Source of the DNA: an uncultured Bacteroidales bacterium
Lineage (GTDB): Bacteria > Bacteroidota > Bacteroidia > Bacteroidales > WCHB1-69
NCBI GenBank assembly: GCA_946186495.1
Contig: CAMHNQ010000007.1
Coordinates: 8,161 to 72,160 of the forward strand
Reading direction: 5' to 3'
DNA length: 64,000 bases
Part shown: positions 49,802 through 60,372 of the stretch, in pieces
Layout: the number at the start of each line of letters is the position of its first letter
Numbering within the stretch: the first letter of the stretch is position 1
Position numbers and translations under genes: made by a program
The notes under the pieces: generated by a model
What the model was told of the DNA's origin: nothing
The model's input: the letters and a program-made list of their open reading frames with translations, nothing else
Databases searched by the model: none

Positions 49802-52273
49802 TCAGTCTTTGAGACAGCGGACGGAGCAGCCAACATCAGGCAACCACGGCCGCATGTCCACGGTACTCTTGTCATAGCCCCAAGACACGGAATACGGTCC
49901 CAGTTCTTTCCCATACTGTCCACAAGTGGAGCTCCAGAAGTAGGCGCTGACCGTCATGGATTCATAATCACCGCCGTAATAGCCGGCGGGCAACGCGGAA
50001 AAACCGGTGCCGTTGTTGGCGGTCATGTCCTTGCAGACGTGACAGTTGGGGTAAAAGCCTAACCCCTCCTCCCACTTCTCTTGCGCAGACAAAGCCTTTG
50101 CGATGCTGTTCTTGCTTTTCCCGCTCACCCACTTGGGCTGTGCCTTCACATAGTCGAACATTTTCTGCCATTCTGCCTTGTTGGGAATATGCCAGCCGTT
50201 CGGACAGAGCCCCTGCACGCGTTCGGAGGATTCACTGCTCATGGTGATGTTCCGCACAGCCGCAGGCCAGTCATACAGATAGCCATACACGGGTACGTTT
50301 GCGCTGTCCCATCCTGGCGACACCATGCCGTCGGGATTCACTTCGGTACCATCCGCATAGCGGGTGGCCCGCATGTTCTCCTTCAGCCAGCATTGGCTGC
50401 CGACCTTCACTGTGGCATACGTATTGCCGTCAACATCGCTGACCGTGAACTGCCCACAAGCAGGCTTGGTGCGGAATGCCTGGTCGTTGCCATACAGAAC
50501 CGCGTCGTTGTCGAGAATGACGTACGCACGGATGTGGAAGTCCGTGTTGGGTTCCAGCCCGTCGAGGACGGACTTCCAGGAATCGTTCTGCACGTCCCAG
50601 GAAGCGGTGACGACCCGGTAGTTCTCCACAGTGGGGTTCGGACGGTAGCTGCAACACACACCTTTTTCGCGAACCTTCACGCCGCCGCGGTCGTACAGGT
50701 CGTACCCGCCGGTCATGACGGAGGTGTCGGTGATGTTGTAGGCGGCAGTAGTGTTCAACGCCGCGCGCGTGTGAAAGGACTGGTTCTCCCCGTAGTCCAC
50801 ACCATCGGCGTGTTGCACATACGCCCGCACGTAATAGACGGTTCCCGGGTTCAGGTTCGAGAGCGTGGTGGTGAACTTGCCTGTCCCCGACCCGTCGGAA
50901 GTGTGGTTTGAGGAGACGGTAGGGTTGAGAACTGTATCGTAGCATATTCCGCGCCCCACTATTGTTTTGCCGACATACTTCTCCCCGTGGATTTCACCAC
51001 CGCATAGTGCAGAAGTGGCGGTCATGCCTTCCGGGTTCAGTGTCACAACTGCAGGAATCTCAGCCTTGGTGGTGAACTCAACCTGTTCCCCGTACGCGGT
51101 TCCCGCCGCATTGGTCGCGTAAGCCCGAACGTAATAATGTGTGCTGGGGGTTAGACGGTCCAGTGTTGCACTGAAGTGTTTCTGACCATCGTTCGATGCC
51201 TTGACACAAAAGGCCTTCCCGAGGCCAGGGTCAGCTGTTTTGCCGAAACAGAACCCGCGTTCCGTCAGCTCTCCGCCGTCGTAGTCGATTTTACCTTTCG
51301 CCATGGCCGAATATTCCGTGATGGTAATCGGGAAACCCGTCTCTACAGAGGGCAGTTGAATCGTCGGTGTGACGAGGGTGTCGAGCTTTAGAGTGGTGTC
51401 GGCCGTTGCTGTTGCCAATTCCGGTTTCTGCTCGACTGTTTTCTCTTGAGCAGAAGAGTCGGCGGCAGACCGTTGAACCGAAGGCATTTCAACAGATGTC
51501 GCAGTATTTGAGGATTGTGCCGATTCCGGAGCCGACTTTGGCGCGACAGAGGTGCCCGTCTCTGGAAGCACATATCCATAATGCTCCAGCAACTGCCGTT
51601 TCCCTTCCGAAGTTTGCAGGCTGAATCCGATTCCGACCTTGAAGCCTAACGATAACAGATCTTTGAACTGGTAACCACTCGCTTTGCTGTGATTTATGTC
51701 ATAAAACCCGACAAATTCCGCTGAGAGAAGAAACCCATTCATGTCGAACATGAACCCTGTGGCAAGCATCGGACCCATTTCCACCTCGTCTTTCAGGTGG
51801 AAATGCCGCTCGTCGTAATAGAAACTTTTGTAGTTGAACGTCCGATAGCCGAATCCGGCACCGAGCTGCCAAGTCACAGGTTTCCATACGCGGAAAGACA
51901 TGCCCAAAAGGCCGTCCAAATACGACTTGGAGGCGACCTCCGGATTGTAGTTGCCTGGCACCTCGGTAGAGAAGGCTCCTTTGAAACGGAAATTCGACAT
52001 GGCGCTCAAATACCAGCCCACATGCTTCATGGTGCCGATCTTGAAGCCATAACCCATGTTCCTGAATGAGGATTGCGCCCATAGTGCCTCCGTGTTGAAT
52101 GTCATGTAGAAATCCTGCATCGCCGCATACTCCTTTTGGCTCGGAGGACGTTGGGCGGAACCAGTTCCCATTGTCAGTCCGATTAGCAGAACGACGAGGG
52201 GCAGTGCACCTCCGACAGTGCACTTCCCCCTGCTGTTATTATTTGTCGCTCTCATAGTCAAGAACCTTTGCAT
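49802..52273 (-). CDS. FISUMP-domain protein C with an N-terminal outer-membrane beta-barrel-like domain, three YVRAY repeats and one FISUMP domain
   Basis: The N-terminal signal-like region is followed by about 200 aa of alternating aromatic/Gly beta-strand pattern (GYGFKIGTM..WYLSAMSNFRF..LLGMSFRVW..WQLGAGFGYRTF..ATGFMFDM..LSAEFVGFYDI..LSLGFKVGIGFSL). A Ser/Thr/Ala-rich linker comes next, then the repeats ...HYYVRAYATNAAGTAYGEQVEFTT and ...VYYVRAYVQH. The FISUMP core is VSDVDGNTYATVKVGSQCWLKENMRATRYADG...GLCPNGWHIPN. The protein ends VRCLKD. The start may be 52273 or 52255. Confidence 0.82.
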   Translation of the reverse strand: MQRFLTMRATNNNSRGKCTVGGALPLVVLLIGLTMGTGSAQRPPSQKEYAAMQDFYMTFNTEALWAQSSFRNMGYGFKIGTMKHVGWYLSAMSNFRFKGAFSTEVPGNYNPEVASKSYLDGLLGMSFRVWKPVTWQLGAGFGYRTFNYKSFYYDERHFHLKDEVEMGPMLATGFMFDMNGFLLSAEFVGFYDINHSKASGYQFKDLLSLGFKVGIGFSLQTSEGKRQLLEHYGYVLPETGTSVAPKSAPESAQSSNTATSVEMPSVQRSAADSSAQEKTVEQKPELATATADTTLKLDTLVTPTIQLPSVETGFPITITEYSAMAKGKIDYDGGELTERGFCFGKTADPGLGKAFCVKASNDGQKHFSATLDRLTPSTHYYVRAYATNAAGTAYGEQVEFTTKAEIPAVVTLNPEGMTATSALCGGEIHGEKYVGKTIVGRGICYDTVLNPTVSSNHTSDGSGTGKFTTTLSNLNPGTVYYVRAYVQHADGVDYGENQSFHTRAALNTTAAYNITDTSVMTGGYDLYDRGGVKVREKGVCCSYRPNPTVENYRVVTASWDVQNDSWKSVLDGLEPNTDFHIRAYVILDNDAVLYGNDQAFRTKPACGQFTVSDVDGNTYATVKVGSQCWLKENMRATRYADGTEVNPDGMVSPGWDSANVPVYGYLYDWPAAVRNITMSSESSERVQGLCPNGWHIPNKAEWQKMFDYVKAQPKWVSGKSKNSIAKALSAQEKWEEGLGFYPNCHVCKDMTANNGTGFSALPAGYYGGDYESMTVSAYFWSSTCGQYGKELGPYSVSWGYDKSTVDMRPWLPDVGCSVRCLKD

Positions 52274-52279
52274 TTACGA

Positions 52280-52825
52280 TCAGAAAAACAGGAGCTTTTT
52301 CTTCTTGGCAGAGTTTTGGCCGGAAGAGTTTTTCTCCTTGGTGGGCAGCGGCGAAATCTCGGGGTTATAGCCTTTGCCGGATTTGCCGATATTATAAAGC
52401 GTGTTGTTGATCATCAACCAGTCCGCGCTGTAAGTCAATCCTTCTTCCGTTTGGATGTCCATCAGCTTACCCTCCTTGTTGAAAAAGAGGTACAGGTTCT
52501 TCGGTTCGCCGTAATAGACTAACTCACCCGTCCACTCATGGCCCTTTCGGTCATAATTGTCGGGTCGGACCTCGCGGAAATAGGTTCTGTACTTGTACAG
52601 ATAGATGGAATAACCGTCTTTCTGGCGGCTGATCACATCGTAGGGAAGCCCGTTCGGAAGTCCCCCGAACTGTTGCACCACTTGGTCGTAGGTACTCCCC
52701 AACTCAAGCGAAAGCACCTTGTCGAGAGGCACATATCGCGGCATGGGTACAGTGGTTTTGCATCCAGTGAAAGTCATGGCAATCATTGCCATGGCGAATG
52801 CTGCTAAAAAAAGTCTTTTCTTCAT
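52280..52825 (-). CDS. Hypothetical lipoprotein
   Basis: MKKRLFLAAFAMAMIAMTFTGCKT (lipobox). The stop lies 6 nt upstream of the FISUMP C start, so the two are probably co-transcribed. Confidence 0.7.
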   Translation of the reverse strand: MKKRLFLAAFAMAMIAMTFTGCKTTVPMPRYVPLDKVLSLELGSTYDQVVQQFGGLPNGLPYDVISRQKDGYSIYLYKYRTYFREVRPDNYDRKGHEWTGELVYYGEPKNLYLFFNKEGKLMDIQTEEGLTYSADWLMINNTLYNIGKSGKGYNPEISPLPTKEKNSSGQNSAKKKKLLFF

Positions 52826-52884: not shown

Positions 52885-54156
52885 TCAAAACCCTTTCCCC
52901 TTCTCCGTCCTGTTGTCGGTGTTTACTTCTGATTTCACACTGGAAGTCGTAGAAGGAGAAACCTGTCTGGGGGACTGCACATGGCTTGGGACATTGCCCT
53001 CAGTCCTGTTCGGTTGCGCGGTTGGAGTCGCTTTTTTTGCCGGTTCGGGTTTGCTGGGTATCGGCATGGGTTTCATGTCGGTCGGGGTCACTTCTGATTT
53101 CTTGGATGTCGCTGACGTCTCCGTTAGGGATTTGGCATCGGTGGAATCTGAATCAAGCCCCTCCTTCGCCGCCGTTGTTTGGGAAGTTGAGGTGGCGAGG
53201 TTTTCATTCTCCTTTCCCGGAAGGGTTTTGACGACAAGAAAAACTATTCCGCACACGGTCGCCACGATTAAGGCTATAAGCATGGCGGACAGGGGTTTCG
53301 GCTTCTTTTTGGCAGGTTCTGCTAACGAGTCATTGCCCTGAGCCAATCCGGACGGGTCGATCTTCTGCGCAGCCATTCGGACAATGTCTTTGGCAAACGG
53401 GCGCTCCCAGGGGTGGAAGTCCAAGCATTGGGTGATGAGCGCACGGAGGTCCTGCGAGAGTTGTCCGGGCAGTTCAGGGACAGGAGTATCCTCATGCTGG
53501 TCCAAGCCACCGCTCCTGAACGGCAGACGTCCGGTCAGCAACTCGAACGCGGATGCCCCGAGAGCCCAGATGTCGCCGGCCATCAAAGGGGCGGAATCCT
53601 CCAAGAACTTCTCCGGCGGCATATAAGGCTTGGTGCCTTTCACCACCTCCTCCTCAACCTCTCCGGCCAAAGCGTTTTTCATGTTGAAGCTGATGCCGAA
53701 GTCGGTGATGACAAATTTGCCGTGGTCAAGCAAGATGTTGTCCGGCTTTATGTCCTGATGGATGATGGGCGGATGCTGATCGTGGAGGTGAGCCAAACCG
53801 GCGGCCACATCGTGGAGGAACTCCCAGCATTTTTGTTCGGTACACTTCCCGACAAGCTTCTCTGCCGAACCGCCCTCATAGTAGGGCATCACTAAGTAAG
53901 GACAACCGTCAGCCACACCTAAGTAGGTGCATTTGAGCAGGTTGGAATGGTTGAGGTTGTAGATGACCGTAAACTCGTTACGAAACAATTCGATGCCTCG
54001 CTCGTCCAATTGCGCCGACGGAAGGAAAATCTTCAGGGCGAGCTTTATCTTGGCGAAGGTGTCTTCCACATACCACACCTCCGAATAGCCGCCTTCTCCT
54101 AATTTGCGCAACAGCTTATATCGCTTGTCAAACAGGGTGTTTTCTGTCAATTTCAT
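52885..54156 (-). CDS. Hanks-type Ser/Thr protein kinase (non-RD: HQD), with one TM helix and an extracytoplasmic S/T/P/K-rich tail
   Basis: LGEGGYSEVWYV (G-loop), LALKIF, HQDIKPDNILL, TDFGIS and GTKPYMPPE. TM helix LSAMLIALIVATVCGIVFLVV. The tail is TSTSQTTAAKEG...KPMPIPSKPEPAKKATPTAQP. The start overlaps the PP2C stop (ATGA). Confidence 0.88.
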   Translation of the reverse strand: MKLTENTLFDKRYKLLRKLGEGGYSEVWYVEDTFAKIKLALKIFLPSAQLDERGIELFRNEFTVIYNLNHSNLLKCTYLGVADGCPYLVMPYYEGGSAEKLVGKCTEQKCWEFLHDVAAGLAHLHDQHPPIIHQDIKPDNILLDHGKFVITDFGISFNMKNALAGEVEEEVVKGTKPYMPPEKFLEDSAPLMAGDIWALGASAFELLTGRLPFRSGGLDQHEDTPVPELPGQLSQDLRALITQCLDFHPWERPFAKDIVRMAAQKIDPSGLAQGNDSLAEPAKKKPKPLSAMLIALIVATVCGIVFLVVKTLPGKENENLATSTSQTTAAKEGLDSDSTDAKSLTETSATSKKSEVTPTDMKPMPIPSKPEPAKKATPTAQPNRTEGNVPSHVQSPRQVSPSTTSSVKSEVNTDNRTEKGKGF

Positions 54157-55454
54157 ATACTGTCCTTGTTGGTTTCGTTTGAATTACTTTCACTCTCATC
54201 GTGGGAATCGTTTTTGCCGGTCGAAAAATCACCGCCCGTTGTCTTCCCTTGTTTGCCTTTTCCCATGTTATCCGAGGGGCTGCCTGCGTTTTCCTGCGAG
54301 AGGGAGTCCTCTCCGGGAGAGGCGGATTGGAGAGCCGACGTGTCAAGCAGTTCTGTCTGCCGATTCGGAATCTCTTTCTCCCGTATTTTCCCTCTTACGA
54401 CAAACAACAGGGTGGTCGCCAAGACTGCCAGCACAGCGAATATGGCCAGCCACTTCAGGATGGGCTTGCTTTTCTCCGACATTTTTGTCTGGGTCAGTGT
54501 TGTCTGTTCCTCCATGTCGGTTTCTTTCTCCGTGCCGGTGAGGACATCCGTTTCGGCATCGGATCCGCAGTGACTGACGTGGCAGAGTATAGAGGTGACA
54601 TTGTCGTGCCAACGTTCTTCGGCCGCTTCCCACAACAAGTCGTTCCATTTGTCTAACTGGCTGGGGGCGAACACTTCAGAGGCATGGACGAGAATGCTTT
54701 CTATGCTCAACTTCTTGGGTTGCTTACCTGTCAGAGGCTTGTCCGGGATGGCGCCGTGCAATCCGTCGCTACAGAGCAGGAAGACGTCCCCGTTGTGGAG
54801 GGGGATGGCCTTTTTGCGTGTTTCCGGCTTCACCTTCTCTGCGGAATCTCCCAGGCTTCGCATAATAATGTTGCTCTTCGGGTGGTTGAACGCATCAGCT
54901 TCCGTGATGTCCCCCTCATCGACCAACATCTGCACCAAAGAGTGATCATGGGTGAGCCGTTCCAGCTTCCCCGTGAAGGTGTTGAATCGGTATATCCTGC
55001 TGTCGCCGCACCAACCGACGTAGGCATTCCCCCTCAGTAGCCACAAGATGGCTATGGTAGTGCCCATGCCGCTATGTTCAGGGTTTTGCTCGGCATCGAA
55101 CTTGATGCTCATGTCCGCATACTGGATGGCCTCTTCAATTTTGCGGAGAAGTTCCTCGTCTGTCTTGCCTGAAATGTTCTCCAATTGGGTGCTGAAGAAA
55201 TTGAAAACAGACTCTACGGCCGTGCGGGAGGCCACTTCACCGGCATTCATGCCGCCCATCCCGTCAGCCACCACCAGCAGACAACCTCTCTCGCCCAGAT
55301 CCATCATGTCCGAGAGATAGGGGGGATTTCCGTCACCTGAATACATCGAGTCCGGCTGTGACAGGTTGGCACACACCAGACAACTGTCCTCGTTGTTGGC
55401 ACGTGCCGCCTTGTCACAGTGTGCGGTAACAATGATTTGTGGGATATTCTGCAT
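54153..55454 (-). CDS. PP2C-family Ser/Thr phosphatase with a C-terminal TM helix and a low-complexity tail
   Basis: ANNEDSCLV, LLVVADGMGGMNAGEVAS, GTTIAILW, LLCSDGLHG and DNVTSILCHV. TM helix ILKWLAIFAVLAVLATTLLFVV. Confidence 0.88.
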   Translation of the reverse strand: MQNIPQIIVTAHCDKAARANNEDSCLVCANLSQPDSMYSGDGNPPYLSDMMDLGERGCLLVVADGMGGMNAGEVASRTAVESVFNFFSTQLENISGKTDEELLRKIEEAIQYADMSIKFDAEQNPEHSGMGTTIAILWLLRGNAYVGWCGDSRIYRFNTFTGKLERLTHDHSLVQMLVDEGDITEADAFNHPKSNIIMRSLGDSAEKVKPETRKKAIPLHNGDVFLLCSDGLHGAIPDKPLTGKQPKKLSIESILVHASEVFAPSQLDKWNDLLWEAAEERWHDNVTSILCHVSHCGSDAETDVLTGTEKETDMEEQTTLTQTKMSEKSKPILKWLAIFAVLAVLATTLLFVVRGKIREKEIPNRQTELLDTSALQSASPGEDSLSQENAGSPSDNMGKGKQGKTTGGDFSTGKNDSHDESESNSNETNKDSI

Positions 55455-55468
55455 CTTATGACTTCTGG

Positions 55469-56566
55469 TTAGTTTCGTCCTCCATCCGGTGAATCCATGC
55501 CGCGGTCTCTGTCTCGGGGGGATTCGCCTCCCGTGCTGCGCGGGTCAGGGGAGTTGTTGCTGAAATCCCGTTCATTAGTCGCATTGTCCGTGTATCCCCG
55601 CTCTCCTTGCCCGCCACGGCTGTCTGAACGAGGGCCGGCCGGCTGCTGCTTGCCAGACGAGGTGTCAGGACTTTGGATGCCGCTTGCCACCGTTTTTGCC
55701 GGTTTGACGACAGCTTGGCCCTTGGCGGAGACACCCGGCTCTGCGCTCACCTTGGCCAATACCCATTGCCCTTGCATTTTCTGCGCCACTCCGAGGAGGA
55801 GAATGTCTGGCGTGTCGCCCATGCTTTGCTCCTTGATGAAAAAGCCGGCCACCACATCCCCTTCAGGCTGAACAAGGTCGTAGTAATTCTTGTCCTCCGT
55901 GAACGTAATCTCCTCCCAGACAGGATAGACAAATTCACCCGCATAGTTTCGTCCAAACCAAAACACGTAACCTCCCGTTTTCACTTTGTTCACTGGCTTT
56001 TTTAGCTGAAAGGAGCTGCCCCCGGAGGATGCCAATGGTGTCTTCAGACAGGCAAAACCAGATGCATACTCGTAGAAAGTCTCCGGCATTGCCAAAGGCA
56101 CACTTTTTTTGTCCGGGGTGCTGGCCTCCACGTTGTCAACTGTCCCGAGACATTCGGCCACAGGATAATTGTCCTTGTCGAAAAGGTCGGGCAGGTTGTT
56201 GAGCAAGGCCACGTCTCCCGACTTCAAAACGAGGGCCAATGCCAAGCGGGAACCTCCGGGGAAAGAGAGATTCGTGCGAACGAGTTGGTCCGCAATGGCA
56301 AAGTTGAGTTCGGAGATGTATATATCTTCGTGCGAACAGCCTGGATCGGTTTCGTCTTTAGGTTCCTTGTTGGAGTTTTTGGTGGGCTTGTTCGTGTTGT
56401 CCGAGGACTGCACGGTTGTTTTCTGAGTCCTTATTTCTGGCAGTTTTTTCGACTCCTTGTTGGCCTTGGACGGGTTGATGGCCGGCAGTCTTGAACCCGG
56501 TGCCTGCCCGAAACCCGTGTACATCAGGAGTACAAAACCCATTAATGGCAATATTCTTTTCATCAT
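55469..56566 (-). CDS. Exported protein of unknown function, embedded in the FHA/kinase operon
   Basis: Signal peptide MMKRILPLMGFVLLMYTGFGQA. A Lys/Asn/Thr-rich linker, a globular-looking core of about 230 aa, and a Gly/Arg/Asp/Ser-rich C-terminus. I recognise no motif. Confidence 0.7.
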   Translation of the reverse strand: MMKRILPLMGFVLLMYTGFGQAPGSRLPAINPSKANKESKKLPEIRTQKTTVQSSDNTNKPTKNSNKEPKDETDPGCSHEDIYISELNFAIADQLVRTNLSFPGGSRLALALVLKSGDVALLNNLPDLFDKDNYPVAECLGTVDNVEASTPDKKSVPLAMPETFYEYASGFACLKTPLASSGGSSFQLKKPVNKVKTGGYVFWFGRNYAGEFVYPVWEEITFTEDKNYYDLVQPEGDVVAGFFIKEQSMGDTPDILLLGVAQKMQGQWVLAKVSAEPGVSAKGQAVVKPAKTVASGIQSPDTSSGKQQPAGPRSDSRGGQGERGYTDNATNERDFSNNSPDPRSTGGESPRDRDRGMDSPDGGRN

Positions 56567-56582
56567 GACCGTGTATTGTTGA

Positions 56583-57920
56583 TTACTTGATTTGAGAAAT
56601 GGGGATAATGACGCTTCCATTATCGCCGATGGTGGAAGAGACCATGCCCACCAAATAGTATTTCCCGTGCCTCTTGCAGAAAACGGGCGAGCCTGAGCTG
56701 CCTGCGTCGATATTGTTGTCGGTCACAATCTTGCCTTCTAACAGACCCGTGTTGGAGGTTGTGACCATGCGGTATTGGGGTTCCAGCTTGTTGGCAGTGG
56801 CTCCCAAAGAGAACGGGAATCCGAGGATATGCAGTTTTGTGCCAAACTTCATTTTTTCCGACAGCTTTTCGTTGGGGACGATTTTGCTTGGCTGGTTCAT
56901 CTTCACGTATGCATAGTCGTTGGTTGAAAGCGCTTTGCGGACGAAATCTCCGACATGGATGTTCCGGCCTTTCGGCAGTGCGAGTTCCTCGAACTGGGCG
57001 GGGTTGCAGGTGCAGTCGGTAGTCTTGAAGGAAAAACGTTTTCCGTCTCTTGATTCCGCCTCGAATTTGGCGTTCACTCGGCCGCCATATACGGAAAGCA
57101 CAAGATTCACGTAGCAATACGGGTCGCTGAGATCCGGGTTGCCCCAATCCACCTGGTAATACCACGGTTCTACCACATGGCGTGCGGTGATGAAGCGGTT
57201 GTCGCAGGTCATGAAACCCGTGGCTGCCGGCTCCACTTCTCCTTTGTCCATATAGTTGTAGGTGTACGGTTCCCCGTTGTTGATGGCGGGGGAGGTCAAG
57301 GTGAACTCTGTCATGCGGACCAGATAAACGTCGTCTTTCAAATTCTCGATGTTAGGGCCTCCGCCGCTCAACAGCAAGTAGGCGGTCACGCCGGCAATAG
57401 CGGCGACCAGAACGGCGCACAATGCAATGATGGCGGCCTTGTAGGGACGGAGCGCCTGCTGGCCGAAATCCTTGATGCGCTCCCCGACACCGATGGACTG
57501 GGAGTATGAACCATCGGAAATGATAAAGCCCACTCTCGGCCCACCTTCGGAAAGCTGAATCTCGTCACCATTTTGCAAATAGTATTCATTGGTGATTGAA
57601 GTGCCGTTTACAAACGTCTCGTTGGTGTTTGAAAGATGCTTCAGCTTCCAGTTGTCGCCGTCCCTGACGATGACGGCGTGTTCGCGGCTGACAGTCGGAC
57701 AGTTTTCCGTGTCAAAGCGTATCTGGCATTTCGAGTCACGTCCTAAGAAGGCTTCGTCGATGATGATACGCTGCTGGTCTCCACGATGATGGAATCGGGT
57801 TTCGTCCTTGTATTCGATGGTGTAGAACTTCTTGCTTTTATTTCCAAAAGCGTTTCTGACTCCAGCGGAAATTGTCCCGGACAGGCTTCTCTTGAATTCG
57901 GTAGTTTTGGTGTCTGACAT
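56583..57920 (-). CDS. FHA domain - TM helix - trypsin-like (S1) serine peptidase fusion
   Basis: FHA region: FLGRDSKCQIRF...VSREHAVIVRDGDNWKLKHLSNTNETFVNG...LQNGDEIQL. TM helix AAIIALCAVLVAAIAGVTAYLLL. Peptidase region: FITARHVVEPW (His), then ...ILGFP... and DAGSSGSPVFC (Ser). Confidence 0.85.
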   Translation of the reverse strand: MSDTKTTEFKRSLSGTISAGVRNAFGNKSKKFYTIEYKDETRFHHRGDQQRIIIDEAFLGRDSKCQIRFDTENCPTVSREHAVIVRDGDNWKLKHLSNTNETFVNGTSITNEYYLQNGDEIQLSEGGPRVGFIISDGSYSQSIGVGERIKDFGQQALRPYKAAIIALCAVLVAAIAGVTAYLLLSGGGPNIENLKDDVYLVRMTEFTLTSPAINNGEPYTYNYMDKGEVEPAATGFMTCDNRFITARHVVEPWYYQVDWGNPDLSDPYCYVNLVLSVYGGRVNAKFEAESRDGKRFSFKTTDCTCNPAQFEELALPKGRNIHVGDFVRKALSTNDYAYVKMNQPSKIVPNEKLSEKMKFGTKLHILGFPFSLGATANKLEPQYRMVTTSNTGLLEGKIVTDNNIDAGSSGSPVFCKRHGKYYLVGMVSSTIGDNGSVIIPISQIK

Positions 57921-57956
57921 AATTTTTGATTTTTATTGTGAATAATCTGAATTCTC

Positions 57957-59252
57957 TTATTCTGTTTCCACACGCAACTTCACCTCCCCGATGGAGAGGA
58001 TATCTCCTTCGGAAAGAATCCTGTCGGATTCCGCGTCGTGAAGCTCCGCAGTGTTAACAAATGTCCCGTTCAGCGAATTGTGCCACTCTCCCCCATACCA
58101 CTGGCCGTCTCGCAGGTGCCATTTTCTCCCGGCAACATCATATTCCAGGGTACAATGTCTTCTGGAGATGTAGGAGGCGTCTGTGTCTTTCAGTTCCACA
58201 TCGTTGCTGAATCCGCTGTGTTCCCTGCCGATCGTCACCACGTACTTGCCGGCATCTGCGAACGACCGGAGAGAAATGGTGCGGCCGGATTCGGAGCCAT
58301 AGACAATCCTTAGCAGACAATTTGTCGTGACTTTCCGTGCAGGATTGCTTGCCTGCCTTGCCACTGAACCGACATTGCCTTGCAGGTGGCAGGGAATCAG
58401 GGACAGGATTCCATCAACCGTTTGGATGCGTTTCTGAAAGTTGGGCTGGAGACAGCCGTCCAAAATCTCGTACCAGTATTCGGGACAATTGTGCAAATGG
58501 AAGACGGTTTCGTTCCACTTGCCCGCCTTTACCTTTTTGATATAGTTGTCAATGTCCGTTTCCTTTTCCAAATCCCCGAAAGGATATTGGTGGAACAGCA
58601 TCTCGTAGAGCACCACGCCGAAAGAGAAGATGTCCGTGGTGGGTAGCACGGTGGAGATGGCTTTCTTAGGGTTGATCTGTTCTGGAGACATGTAGGCCAA
58701 TGTCCCGAAAGTCTGTATTTTGGAGAAAATGCCTCTTCTTTCTGGCTTTACACGACAGTTTCCGCTCGTCCCGAAATCCGACAAGGCGAATGTCCCCGTC
58801 TTTTTTCTCAAAATGTTGGCCGGCTTCAAATCCCGGTGTACCTTGCCGTTACGATGCAAGTCTCGCAGTCCGTACAGTATCTCACAGACCACTTTTTCAA
58901 CGTCGGTATCTGGATTCTTCATGAATCGCTGCAGGCTTGTTTCACTGCATAACTCCATCACAATGTATGGGTTCCCCTTCACCCAGTCGGAGTGATAGGA
59001 ATAAACGATATAGTCGCTCCGAATCCTACCGGTCTCGAATTCCAGTTGGAAACGGTTCACCAGCTCTTCACGAAGGTGGGCCTCCCGTTTCCACAGCGGA
59101 AGTATCTTGAGCGCGAAATGCCGGTCTTGGCGGTCACAGACATCATAAACCATGCCGAAGCTTCCCTCGCCCAGGAGCTTCTTCACTTGGTATTCCCTGT
59201 CTATGTATTCGCCAGGCAGGAAACTGCATCGTTCGGGGATTTCTCGCAACAT
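57957..59252 (-). CDS. Soluble Hanks-type Ser/Thr kinase with a C-terminal FHA domain
   Basis: LGEGSFGMVYDV, FALKIL, HRDLKPANIL, LSDFGTS and GTLAYMSPE. C-terminal FHA: VTIGREHSGFSNDVELKDTDASYISRRHCTLEYD...SLNGTFVNT...LSEGDILSIG. Start placed at MLREIPER (59252), after the upstream gene's stop. Confidence 0.88.
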   Translation of the reverse strand: MLREIPERCSFLPGEYIDREYQVKKLLGEGSFGMVYDVCDRQDRHFALKILPLWKREAHLREELVNRFQLEFETGRIRSDYIVYSYHSDWVKGNPYIVMELCSETSLQRFMKNPDTDVEKVVCEILYGLRDLHRNGKVHRDLKPANILRKKTGTFALSDFGTSGNCRVKPERRGIFSKIQTFGTLAYMSPEQINPKKAISTVLPTTDIFSFGVVLYEMLFHQYPFGDLEKETDIDNYIKKVKAGKWNETVFHLHNCPEYWYEILDGCLQPNFQKRIQTVDGILSLIPCHLQGNVGSVARQASNPARKVTTNCLLRIVYGSESGRTISLRSFADAGKYVVTIGREHSGFSNDVELKDTDASYISRRHCTLEYDVAGRKWHLRDGQWYGGEWHNSLNGTFVNTAELHDAESDRILSEGDILSIGEVKLRVETE

Positions 59253-59946: not shown

Positions 59947-60090
59947 AATCTTCCTTGTTTGTTCTTGAGTTCACTCTATAAAAACGAAAACGGTATCGAC
60001 GATTTGAATTTATTCTGATTGAAAACCAGTCGGTTACAGAATATTTCCGCTTTCATTCACAGACACAAAAAAATCGTGAGCCTGTTTTGC

Positions 60091-60206
60091 GCTGCACGAA
60101 GGTCTGGACACCTATACCACAAACAAGAAAGCTCACGATCCACATCGCAAGCGATTCGTTTCTTTCTTCGTGGTATTGCTGAAAATTGTCCAGATTTTCG
60201 TGCAGC
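60091..60206 (-). promoter_or_regulatory. Extended imperfect ~116-nt hairpin in the ~365-nt leader of the FHA/kinase operon
   Basis: Outer arms are gctgcacgaa-gg-tctggaca (60091-60110) and tgtccaga-ttt-tcgtgcagc (60187-60206). Inner arms are taccac..aagaaag and ctttctt..gtggta. Confidence 0.5.
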
Positions 60207-60311
60207 AGAAGAAAAGCGAAAACGCCTTACCTTATTAAATTATGTATAATTATTATCTGTCTATATCCTTGTTATTTGTCTTTTTGTTGATAATCCGTTG
60301 AAATTTCGCCG

Positions 60312-60319
60312 CAAAGATA
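60312..60319 (-). promoter_or_regulatory. -7 promoter box (TAtcTTTG on the minus strand), the nearest box upstream of the FHA/kinase operon
   Basis: CAAAGATA on the plus strand, 366 nt upstream of the ATG at 59946 and 54 nt downstream of the SDR gene stop. Confidence 0.5.
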
Positions 60320-60372
60320 CATTTTTTTGTAATGTGTAGCTCGCGGTTTGTGATTTTTGTTGGCCGTGGCCT

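Follow-up and report, generated by a model that had tools for sequence, protein, structure and literature searches.

A membrane-spanning FHA–S1 protease protein embedded in a Hanks-kinase/PP2C operon of Bacteroidales

Two kinds of described system come closest to the protein treated here. DegS of Escherichia coli has a chymotrypsin-fold protease domain in the periplasm, held there by an N-terminal transmembrane (TM) anchor, and cleaves the anti-sigma factor RseA at site 1; DegS has few cytoplasmic residues and a C-terminal PDZ domain that senses outer-membrane-protein peptides. FHA adaptors of Hanks-kinase systems are encoded in the mycobacterial cluster fhaA-fhaB-pstP-rodA-pbpA-pknA-pknB (FhaB/FipA, Rv0019c; FhaA, Rv0020c), where FHA proteins, one of them membrane-anchored, go together with a membrane PP2C phosphatase and Hanks kinases; they also include the small soluble metabolic regulators GarA and OdhI, and the Fha1/TagH protein of the type VI secretion system (T6SS), in which the membrane Hanks kinase PpkA, the PP2C phosphatase PppA and the FHA protein control an envelope-spanning output by phosphothreonine docking. 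In a 64,000-nt stretch of DNA from an uncultured Bacteroidales bacterium (GenBank CAMHNQ010000007.1, positions 8,161 to 72,160; hereafter, the window), the gene at 56583-57920 encodes a protein in which an FHA domain is joined through one TM helix to an S1-type protease domain, and which, by analogy, appears to work like a hybrid of DegS and the Hanks-operon FHA adaptors (FhaB/FipA, GarA, T6SS Fha1).

The combination of domains is itself on record. A 2008 survey of prokaryotic serine proteases lists Bacteroides thetaiotaomicron NP_811686.1 as a singleton architecture, “FHA-FHA-Tryp” (PMC2605481), with the same domain combination as the window protein and from the same bacterial order, but only catalogues it, without analysis of topology, operon or function. 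Beyond that entry, we found no experimental or functional characterisation of the family in the literature on the B. thetaiotaomicron accession or on Bacteroides FHA proteins and kinases. An initial annotation, made from the sequence alone, had not recognised the architecture as characterised; this stands as regards function, but the architecture, catalogued in 2008, is not unusual, since relatives occur in at least 527 genomes (scanned at one genome per species), the inspected ones being Bacteroidales save for a few oddly labelled bins. Homologues in a search of 5.8 billion proteins fall into at least 609 clusters, nearly all with the FHA plus Trypsin architecture and bearing no annotation other than “FHA domain-containing protein” or “S1-C subfamily serine protease”; among 1.84 billion representatives, the ectodomain by itself has matches in no more than 320 clusters, most of them of the FHA–TM–S1 architecture. 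Gene calls on 19 metagenome contigs give the identical protein, and the habitat of the window organism is the gut of sheep and goats. More than 600 clusters of the same architecture, together with metatranscriptome cover, confirm that the FHA–TM–S1 protein is a genuine family member, beyond chance. The architecture is thus widespread, already catalogued and experimentally untouched. We kept 80 species loci out of the at least 527 (Bacteroides, Segatella/Prevotella, Parabacteroides, Muribaculaceae, Rikenellaceae/Alistipes, Paludibacteraceae, Odoribacter, Tannerella, Azobacteroides and a few odd-labelled bins); conservation counts out of 81 given below refer to the window protein (the query) plus these 80 species.

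The initial annotation had placed the open reading frame (ORF) correctly and left its strand unstated: it lies on the minus strand and runs from ATG to TAA, with 445 codons plus stop (coordinates of all features are collected in Table 1). The FHA motifs that had been reported (G60-R61, S78-R79-E80-H81 and N105-G106) are all there, as is N100, and the Pfam FHA profile (PF00498) matches residues 59-123 with an E value of 2.4e-17 (63.6 bits against a cut-off of 20.7). In the AlphaFold2 model, which was built from a 25-sequence alignment and has a mean predicted local distance difference test (pLDDT) score of 79 (about 85-94 in the ectodomain), the FHA domain is a 10-strand beta sandwich. Its closest solved counterparts in a profile search are the FHA domains of GarA, OdhI and FhaA (Rv0020c), with an E value of 8e-9 for GarA/OdhI. 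Judged by its sequence, the predicted cytoplasmic FHA domain retains all the residues required for phosphothreonine binding.

We found no N-terminal signal peptide in the protein. The only strongly hydrophobic segment is AAIIALCAVLVAAIAGVTAYLLL (residues 162-184), for which the Kyte–Doolittle mean over 19 residues is 2.6, in agreement with the single TM helix first proposed; in the model, helices span residues 145-156 and 158-185. One helix between the FHA and S1 domains implies that the two are on opposite sides of the membrane. The flanks of the helix carry four Lys/Arg residues in the 15 positions before it and one in the 15 after it, and by the positive-inside rule the FHA domain is therefore placed in the cytoplasm; the N flank is the richer one in Lys/Arg in 71 of the 81 family proteins. 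The split topology anticipated by the initial annotation, with a cytoplasmic FHA domain and an extracytoplasmic S1 domain, is borne out by these features, and the predicted product is a type-II single-pass membrane protein.

The protease domain begins some 13 residues beyond the membrane. It scores 25.6 bits with Pfam Trypsin (PF00089; cut-off 20.6) and 27.1 bits with Trypsin_2 (PF13365; cut-off 27.6), the full length of the latter model (positions 1-144) being aligned to residues 233-426. A Foldseek comparison of the model with the PDB returned the protease domains of HtrA1, DegS, DegP, DegQ and HtrA2 (E about 1e-8, probability 1.00, target TM-scores 0.6-0.66), DegS being a top structural match, and also the S1C-like sensor domain of RsgI9 (7sjy). 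The S1-type His and Ser motifs that had been noted at the outset correspond to H248 (TARHVV) and S409 (GSSGSP). The catalytic Asp, which the initial annotation had left to be located, is found in D335: in phmmer alignments, for which the similarity to DegQ is marginal (E 0.03-0.2), D335 is opposite the Asp of the DegQ motif SDIALLQI, taken as the catalytic Asp, and S409 is opposite the Ser of GNSGG, which is Ala in the DegQ chains of 4a8a. D335 is invariant among the 120 closest homologues. The predicted triad of the window protein is thus complete, and the ectodomain can be described as a putatively active S1 protease.

By profiles and motifs, the protein would belong both to the FHA-domain proteins and to peptidase family S1 (clan PA), and the S1 double beta-barrel fold is seen in the predicted structure. 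The family profile also finds mycobacterial HtrA1 (E about 4e-4), over the C-terminal barrel only. Pfam gives no PDZ match, and only about 20 residues follow the last protease-domain strand before the C-terminus. Since it has no PDZ domain, the window protein is HtrA-like in fold and not a member of the HtrA family.

Conservation is unevenly distributed over the protein. R61, S78, R79, H81 and N100 are invariant in 81 of 81 species; amongst the 120 best matches, the same five residues are near-invariant, R79 alone varying, once. Identity to the query reaches 57.5% in the FHA domain and 52.6% in the juxtamembrane section but 29.7% in the ectodomain, a roughly twofold difference in conservation between the cytoplasmic side and the ectodomain; the TM helix is at 28%. 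In the juxtamembrane helix (S-I-G-x-x-x-R-x-x-x-F-x-Q-Q-A-L-R-P-Y-K), R148, F152, Q155 and P159 are present in all 81 species and A156, L157 and Y160 in 80.

At the N-terminus, an unannotated consensus, T-x-x-Y/F-K/R-R/K-T/S-L-x-G-S/T-V-G-A-G, recurs throughout the family: T/S12, S/T16 and G20 occur in all 81 sequences, G15 in 80, Y/F9 in 79 and T6 in 63. The motif lies in a section with pLDDT values below 50 (residues 1-29). GarA and OdhI share with the window protein a disordered, conserved, Thr/Ser-containing segment ahead of the FHA domain; in these two regulators, the segment becomes phosphorylated and is bound by the FHA domain of the same molecule. By this analogy, the N-terminal motif is a candidate phospho-acceptor or FHA-ligand segment. 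As a small soluble metabolic regulator, OdhI is otherwise unlike the window protein, which scores 26.9 bits with the OdhI model (cut-off 200).

The triad is less constant. It reads His-Asp-Ser (HDS) in 57 of the 81 species and is degenerate in 17; the protease domain is absent in five, and two sequences are cut by contig ends. Degenerate forms include QSY, QCL, QSL, QLI and QAF, found in the long forms of the Bacteroides and Prevotella types, as well as RDS, RDD, DNS and RNS. The Bacteroides-genus members examined (L041, L044, L046; the B. thetaiotaomicron sequence is not among them) have the dead triad QSY, unlike the window protein. Amongst the 120 closest clusters, 16 have a degenerate triad, including two that are 72-73% identical to the query and are without the His and the Ser (P0004 and P0005). 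The invariance of the phosphothreonine-binding residues, set against the decay of the triad, identifies phosphothreonine reading and the cytoplasmic face as the fixed core of the family. Catalysis, as judged from the triad residues, is common in the family and retained in the query, but dispensable, and proteolysis is not the conserved core.

The family members encoded at five loci of the Alistipes/Prevotella type (L060, L062, L063, L068 and L071) consist solely of an FHA domain and a TM helix followed, on the periplasmic side, by about 130 residues of charged, coiled-coil-like sequence. The membrane kinases of the same five loci have extracytoplasmic tails of 0-5 residues.

The 56583-57920 gene belongs to a kinase/phosphatase operon. 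The genes are tightly packed on the minus strand, with distances ranging from a 4-bp overlap to a 59-bp gap, and the core order (Zn-ribbon protein, kinase-FHA, FHA–TM–S1, with or without the partner, PP2C-TM, TM kinase) recurs in nearly all of the 80 species loci. Metatranscriptome contigs from sheep gut cover the operon; they bridge the junction between the kinase-FHA gene and the FHA–TM–S1 gene (57603-57998 and 57675-58148) and that between the latter and the partner gene (56387-57283 and 55890-56921), although carry-over of DNA in the libraries is possible.

Table 1. Coordinates of the FHA–TM–S1 gene, its predicted parts and the neighbouring genes in the window
Feature	Position	Strand	Evidence
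Whole gene, FHA–TM–S1 protease	56583..57920	-	ORF list, translation
Conserved N-terminal motif, residues 6-25, predicted disordered	57846..57905	-	pLDDT <50 at residues 1-29
Cytoplasmic FHA domain, residues 31-135; predicted phosphothreonine-binding R61, S78, R79, H81, N100	57516..57830	-	Pfam, AlphaFold2 model
Juxtamembrane helix, residues 142-161	57438..57497	-	Conservation and model
Single TM helix, residues 162-184, N-in/C-out	57369..57437	-	Hydropathy, Lys/Arg flanks
Periplasmic HtrA-like S1 chymotrypsin-fold domain, residues 198-445, no PDZ	56586..57329	-	Pfam, Foldseek
Codon of predicted catalytic His248 (TARHVV; canonical TNaHV context)	57177..57179	-	Motif
Codon of predicted catalytic Asp335 (NDYAYVK)	56916..56918	-	Alignment to DegQ
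Codon of predicted catalytic Ser409 (GSSGSP)	56694..56696	-	Alignment to DegQ
Gene 1: double Zn-ribbon with C-terminal FHA-like domain, 228 amino acids	59260..59946	-	Pfam DZR, Zn_Ribbon_1, partial FHA
Gene 2: soluble Hanks kinase (HRD) with C-terminal FHA domain, 431 amino acids	57957..59252	-	Pkinase 1.6e-41, FHA 4.7e-13
Gene 4: secreted partner, 365 amino acids; signal peptide, beta-rich core, disordered basic tail	55469..56566	-	No Pfam family
Gene 5: PP2C phosphatase; TM from near residue 335, 80-residue low-complexity periplasmic tail	54153..55454	-	Pfam PP2C_2
Gene 6: membrane Hanks kinase; TM from near residue 291, Ser/Thr/Pro-rich extracytoplasmic tail of about 115 residues	52885..54156	-	
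Gene 7: lipoprotein, 181 amino acids, lipobox Cys	52280..52825	-	E 8e-33 to 190-amino-acid protein of L006

The secreted partner encoded directly downstream had been put forward in the initial annotation as a candidate substrate, which is a sensible choice: it represents a conserved family that sits between the FHA–TM–S1 gene and the PP2C gene in 43 of the 76 assessable loci. The partner gene is present in 42 of 54 loci with an intact triad and in one of 22 in which the triad is degenerate or the protease domain absent (Fisher p 2e-9, uncorrected). The periplasmic tail of the PP2C phosphatase likewise differs in length: loci with an intact triad have a median of about 130 residues, those with a degenerate triad or no protease domain 22-36. 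These tails are mostly of low complexity and are plausible protease substrates. In at least three species (L028, L066 and L049), the tail ends in a LysM domain (Pfam E values 6.5e-14, 1.4e-9 and 6e-5, respectively), a hint that the module is connected with the cell wall. Taken together, the sequence comparisons are suggestive of an ectodomain, a partner and a PP2C tail that act together and that decay jointly, over long times, after catalysis is lost.

The partner family was assembled from the fetched loci. Queried with the partner sequence or with a 17-sequence profile, the index of 5.8 billion proteins yielded no more than the partner itself and one relative, and none of 17 family members matched a Pfam family. 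The AlphaFold2 model of the partner (three-sequence alignment) has a mean pLDDT of 33.6 and is unusable. A strict link between intact triad and partner was considered and is weakened by two counter-examples in three extra look-ups (P0004 and P0020).

We put the probability at roughly 45% that the FHA–TM–S1 protein is a phosphothreonine-docked, membrane-tethered protease or pseudoprotease that acts on co-encoded periplasmic parts, i.e., that it is an inside-out adaptor of the Hanks-kinase/PP2C operon. The operon kinases would phosphorylate threonines in their own chains, in the phosphatase or in the disordered N-terminal motif of the FHA–TM–S1 protein. Docking of the FHA domain on such sites would place or cluster the tethered protease beside the periplasmic parts of the complex, i.e., the secreted partner and the disordered tails of the PP2C phosphatase and the kinase, which it may then cleave or hold. 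The logic would be like that of DegS cutting the periplasmic domain of RseA, with the tail of a single-pass protein encoded nearby as the proposed substrate, but gated from the inside by Ser/Thr phosphorylation: unlike DegS, the protein has no PDZ domain and carries, on the cytoplasmic side, an FHA module of 160 residues. In this way, the signalling module could acquire a self-reinforcing or resettable phospho-state. In lineages with a decayed triad, the protein would serve solely as a phospho-dependent scaffold.

As for the direction of signalling, the ectodomains of the membrane kinases elsewhere in the family of operons are highly variable (six Big_2 repeats, Sel1, RHS repeats, or none), which suggests that input arrives via the kinases and that the FHA–TM–S1 protein is downstream. 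Moreover, FHA domains are usually found on recipients of kinase signals, such as GarA, EmbR, Rv1747 and T6SS Fha1. The inside-out direction asserted in the initial annotation is one possible direction, unproven by computation, that is mildly favoured over a sensor role by this precedent and by the variable kinase ectodomains; for the same two reasons, we rank it above a receptor function.

Several observations weigh against this adaptor. The triad is dispensable in about a quarter of the species, and the Trypsin_2 score of the window protein is 0.5 bit under the gathering score. Two homologues with a degenerate triad, P0004 (QDA; locus L087) and P0020 (RDS; locus L089), retain both the partner and a long PP2C, and because these loci keep the partner without an intact triad, the partner cannot be purely a substrate. 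Conversely, 12 loci with an intact triad are without the partner. The Fisher p value is inflated, as there are few independent events: a neighbour-joining tree has at least four triad changes and at least eight partner changes, and one large clade carries most of the signal.

A more specific form of the adaptor is a phosphothreonine-gated “site-1” protease: the kinases would fire, the FHA domain would dock the protease, the PP2C tail or the partner would be cut, the brake would come off and the pathway would be locked on. This sequence of events we hold to be unlikely; if true, it would be the core switch of the apparent main Hanks-kinase system in gut Bacteroidales.

The alternative that survives best, doubtful as we consider it, is an outside-in receptor, in which the S1-like ectodomain senses a ligand or peptide and oligomerisation clusters the FHA domain and juxtamembrane section, thereby activating the kinases; the protein would supply the receptor subunit of a split receptor kinase, with catalysis in second place. 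The repeated loss of the triad while the fold is kept, and the fast evolution of the ectodomain, would fit such a role, as would the absence of any folded sensor from the membrane kinase and phosphatase of the window operon, which bear only low-complexity periplasmic tails. A precedent is RsgI9, a signalling protein of Clostridium (Acetivibrio) thermocellum that crosses the membrane once and whose S1C-like extracytoplasmic domain serves as a sensor by binding cellulose (PMC12203970; 7sjy). That Gram-positive protein, however, has a cytoplasmic anti-sigma domain and an additional NTF2 domain, whereas the cytoplasmic part of the window protein is an FHA domain; there is no sigma factor gene in the operon. 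Furthermore, FHA domains read phosphosites and are not known to start signalling unless one already exists, and the triad of the query is intact. Many species have membrane kinases with large ectodomains of their own, and in the five species with the FHA–TM–coiled-coil-like form the conserved function needs no sensor domain. A direct fusion of the protease ectodomain to a kinase would have favoured the sensor role; amongst the proteins carrying this ectodomain, no such case was found, the long carriers being Zn-ribbon–Sel1/TPR–LRR–Trypsin_2 proteins.

Quite unlikely, in our judgement, is a structural role as a phospho-regulated envelope or division scaffold that tethers cytoplasmic phospho-proteins to periplasmic or peptidoglycan structures, with the protease as a lineage-specific accessory. 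Mycobacterial FhaB/FipA and the FHA-like cytoplasmic domains of YscD/PrgH of the type III secretion system (T3SS) would be its analogues. The two FHA proteins, membrane PP2C phosphatase and kinases of the operon parallel the composition of the actinobacterial fhaA-fhaB-pstP-...-pknA-pknB cluster. In most relatives, the periplasmic part includes a linker of 50-150 residues that we interpret as a coiled coil, and some relatives consist of FHA, TM and linker only; the LysM-ended PP2C tails point the same way. The profile matches are weak, however, and far below the cut-offs, at 29.7 bits for FhaB/FipA (NF049868; cut-off 125) and 30.7 bits for Yop-YscD_cpl (PF16697; cut-off 33.2), and there is no T3SS context. 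FhaB itself has no extracytoplasmic domain and belongs to a different phylum, and the window operon has no RodA or PbpA genes, nor any other genes for division, cell-wall synthesis or secretion systems. The clade of the query is without the long linker, and the retention of the triad in about 70% of the species argues for selection on catalysis there. For the T6SS, the set of membrane kinase, PP2C phosphatase and FHA protein is shared with the operon, but the TIGR03354 (TagH/Fha) score is 21.7 (cut-off 120.25) and no T6SS genes occur in the operon or its flanks.

A DegS/DegP-like housekeeping protease for general quality control, which the FHA domain would merely localise or stabilise, is improbable: the best structural matches are of the HtrA family and the membrane anchor is as in DegS, but the protein lacks a PDZ domain, its ectodomain clade is almost confined to the FHA–TM–S1 architecture and the operon, the triad is lost in many species, and the gene is strictly embedded amongst kinase and phosphatase genes. 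An anti-phage or conflict system, i.e., an abortive-infection module of kinase, FHA protein and protease, is highly improbable, as the PADLOC matches (mad6 and PD-T4-6 for the kinases; LmuA and RT-Protease models for the protease) are all to generic kinase or trypsin domains, with none for the partner, the Zn-ribbon protein or the lipoprotein, the operon appears to be a vertically inherited core across the order, usually once per locus, and an extracytoplasmic protease is ill-suited as an intracellular effector.

Bacteroidales dominate mammalian gut communities, yet Ser/Thr-kinase signalling in them has essentially not been studied; two Ser/Thr kinases were all that a 2005 survey counted in B. 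thetaiotaomicron (PMC1262709). With two kinases in each copy, the operon may be the principal Hanks-type system of the order. The FHA–TM–protease is the operon component with domains on both sides of the membrane, and knowing the targets that it binds or cuts would show how envelope events are coupled to cytoplasmic phosphorylation, and might reveal a new way in which periplasmic proteolysis is gated from inside the cell. The predicted active, dead and domain-less versions that occur naturally are ready-made controls.

The two kinases of the operon are of different classes. The product of gene 2, whose start codon is as placed by the gene callers, is of the canonical RD type and its FHA pocket is intact (motifs HRDLKPAN, DFG, GR, SRRH and NG); unlike it, the membrane kinase (gene 6) is non-RD (HQDIKPDN). 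The gene of the Zn-ribbon protein (gene 1) precedes the kinase-FHA gene in almost all of the 80 loci; the partial FHA match of the protein spans profile positions 21-67, the GR, SxxH and NG motifs were looked for in this part and not found, and its FHA-like domain probably does not bind phosphothreonine, judging by sequence. The PP2C phosphatase scores 171 bits with NCBIfam Stp1, under the cut-off of that model.

A scan for sites resembling sigma-70 promoters and terminators gave fewer than shuffled sequence does; it says little here, since the promoter consensus of Bacteroidales is a different one. In the intergenic region 59947-60372, the minus strand carries TATCTTTG near 60312-60319, about 370 nt upstream of the first gene of the operon, which we take to fit the Bacteroides -7 promoter motif TAnnTTTG. 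A variant of the same spacer with a 71-nt deletion (60137 joined to 60209) is seen in metatranscriptome contigs of two runs.

In the clade of the query, the operon is followed by the 181-amino-acid lipoprotein and by large fn3/FISUMP (Fib_succ_major) surface proteins (window positions 49802-52825, minus strand), an arrangement also seen in L001, L087 and L088 and not in other Bacteroidales; lipoproteins like that of gene 7 occur in L087 and L088. In another locus (L004), Sel1 proteins come after the operon.

The L088 locus (XIEF21-1 scaffold_1984) holds two divergent copies of the system, one of them complete. The second copy is triad-dead (NDA), has a short PP2C and no kinase-FHA gene, and in its partner slot there is a secreted low-complexity repeat ORF, broken by an assembly gap.

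The protease-domain clade also occurs in other proteins. It is C-terminal in three proteins of 950-1050 amino acids (P0155, P0158 and P0161), where N-terminal double Zn-ribbons, Sel1/TPR and BspA-type leucine-rich repeat (LRR)/DUF285 repeats precede Trypsin_2. In L005 (9516-10454) and L009 (8203-9141), an extra secreted paralogue of 312 amino acids with intact triad motifs, 38% identical to the ectodomain of the query, is encoded directly after the FHA–TM–protease. The signal peptide of this paralogue is common to the partner gene that comes next; as this is the sole likeness between the two, we rejected the idea that the partner is a diverged copy of the protease domain.

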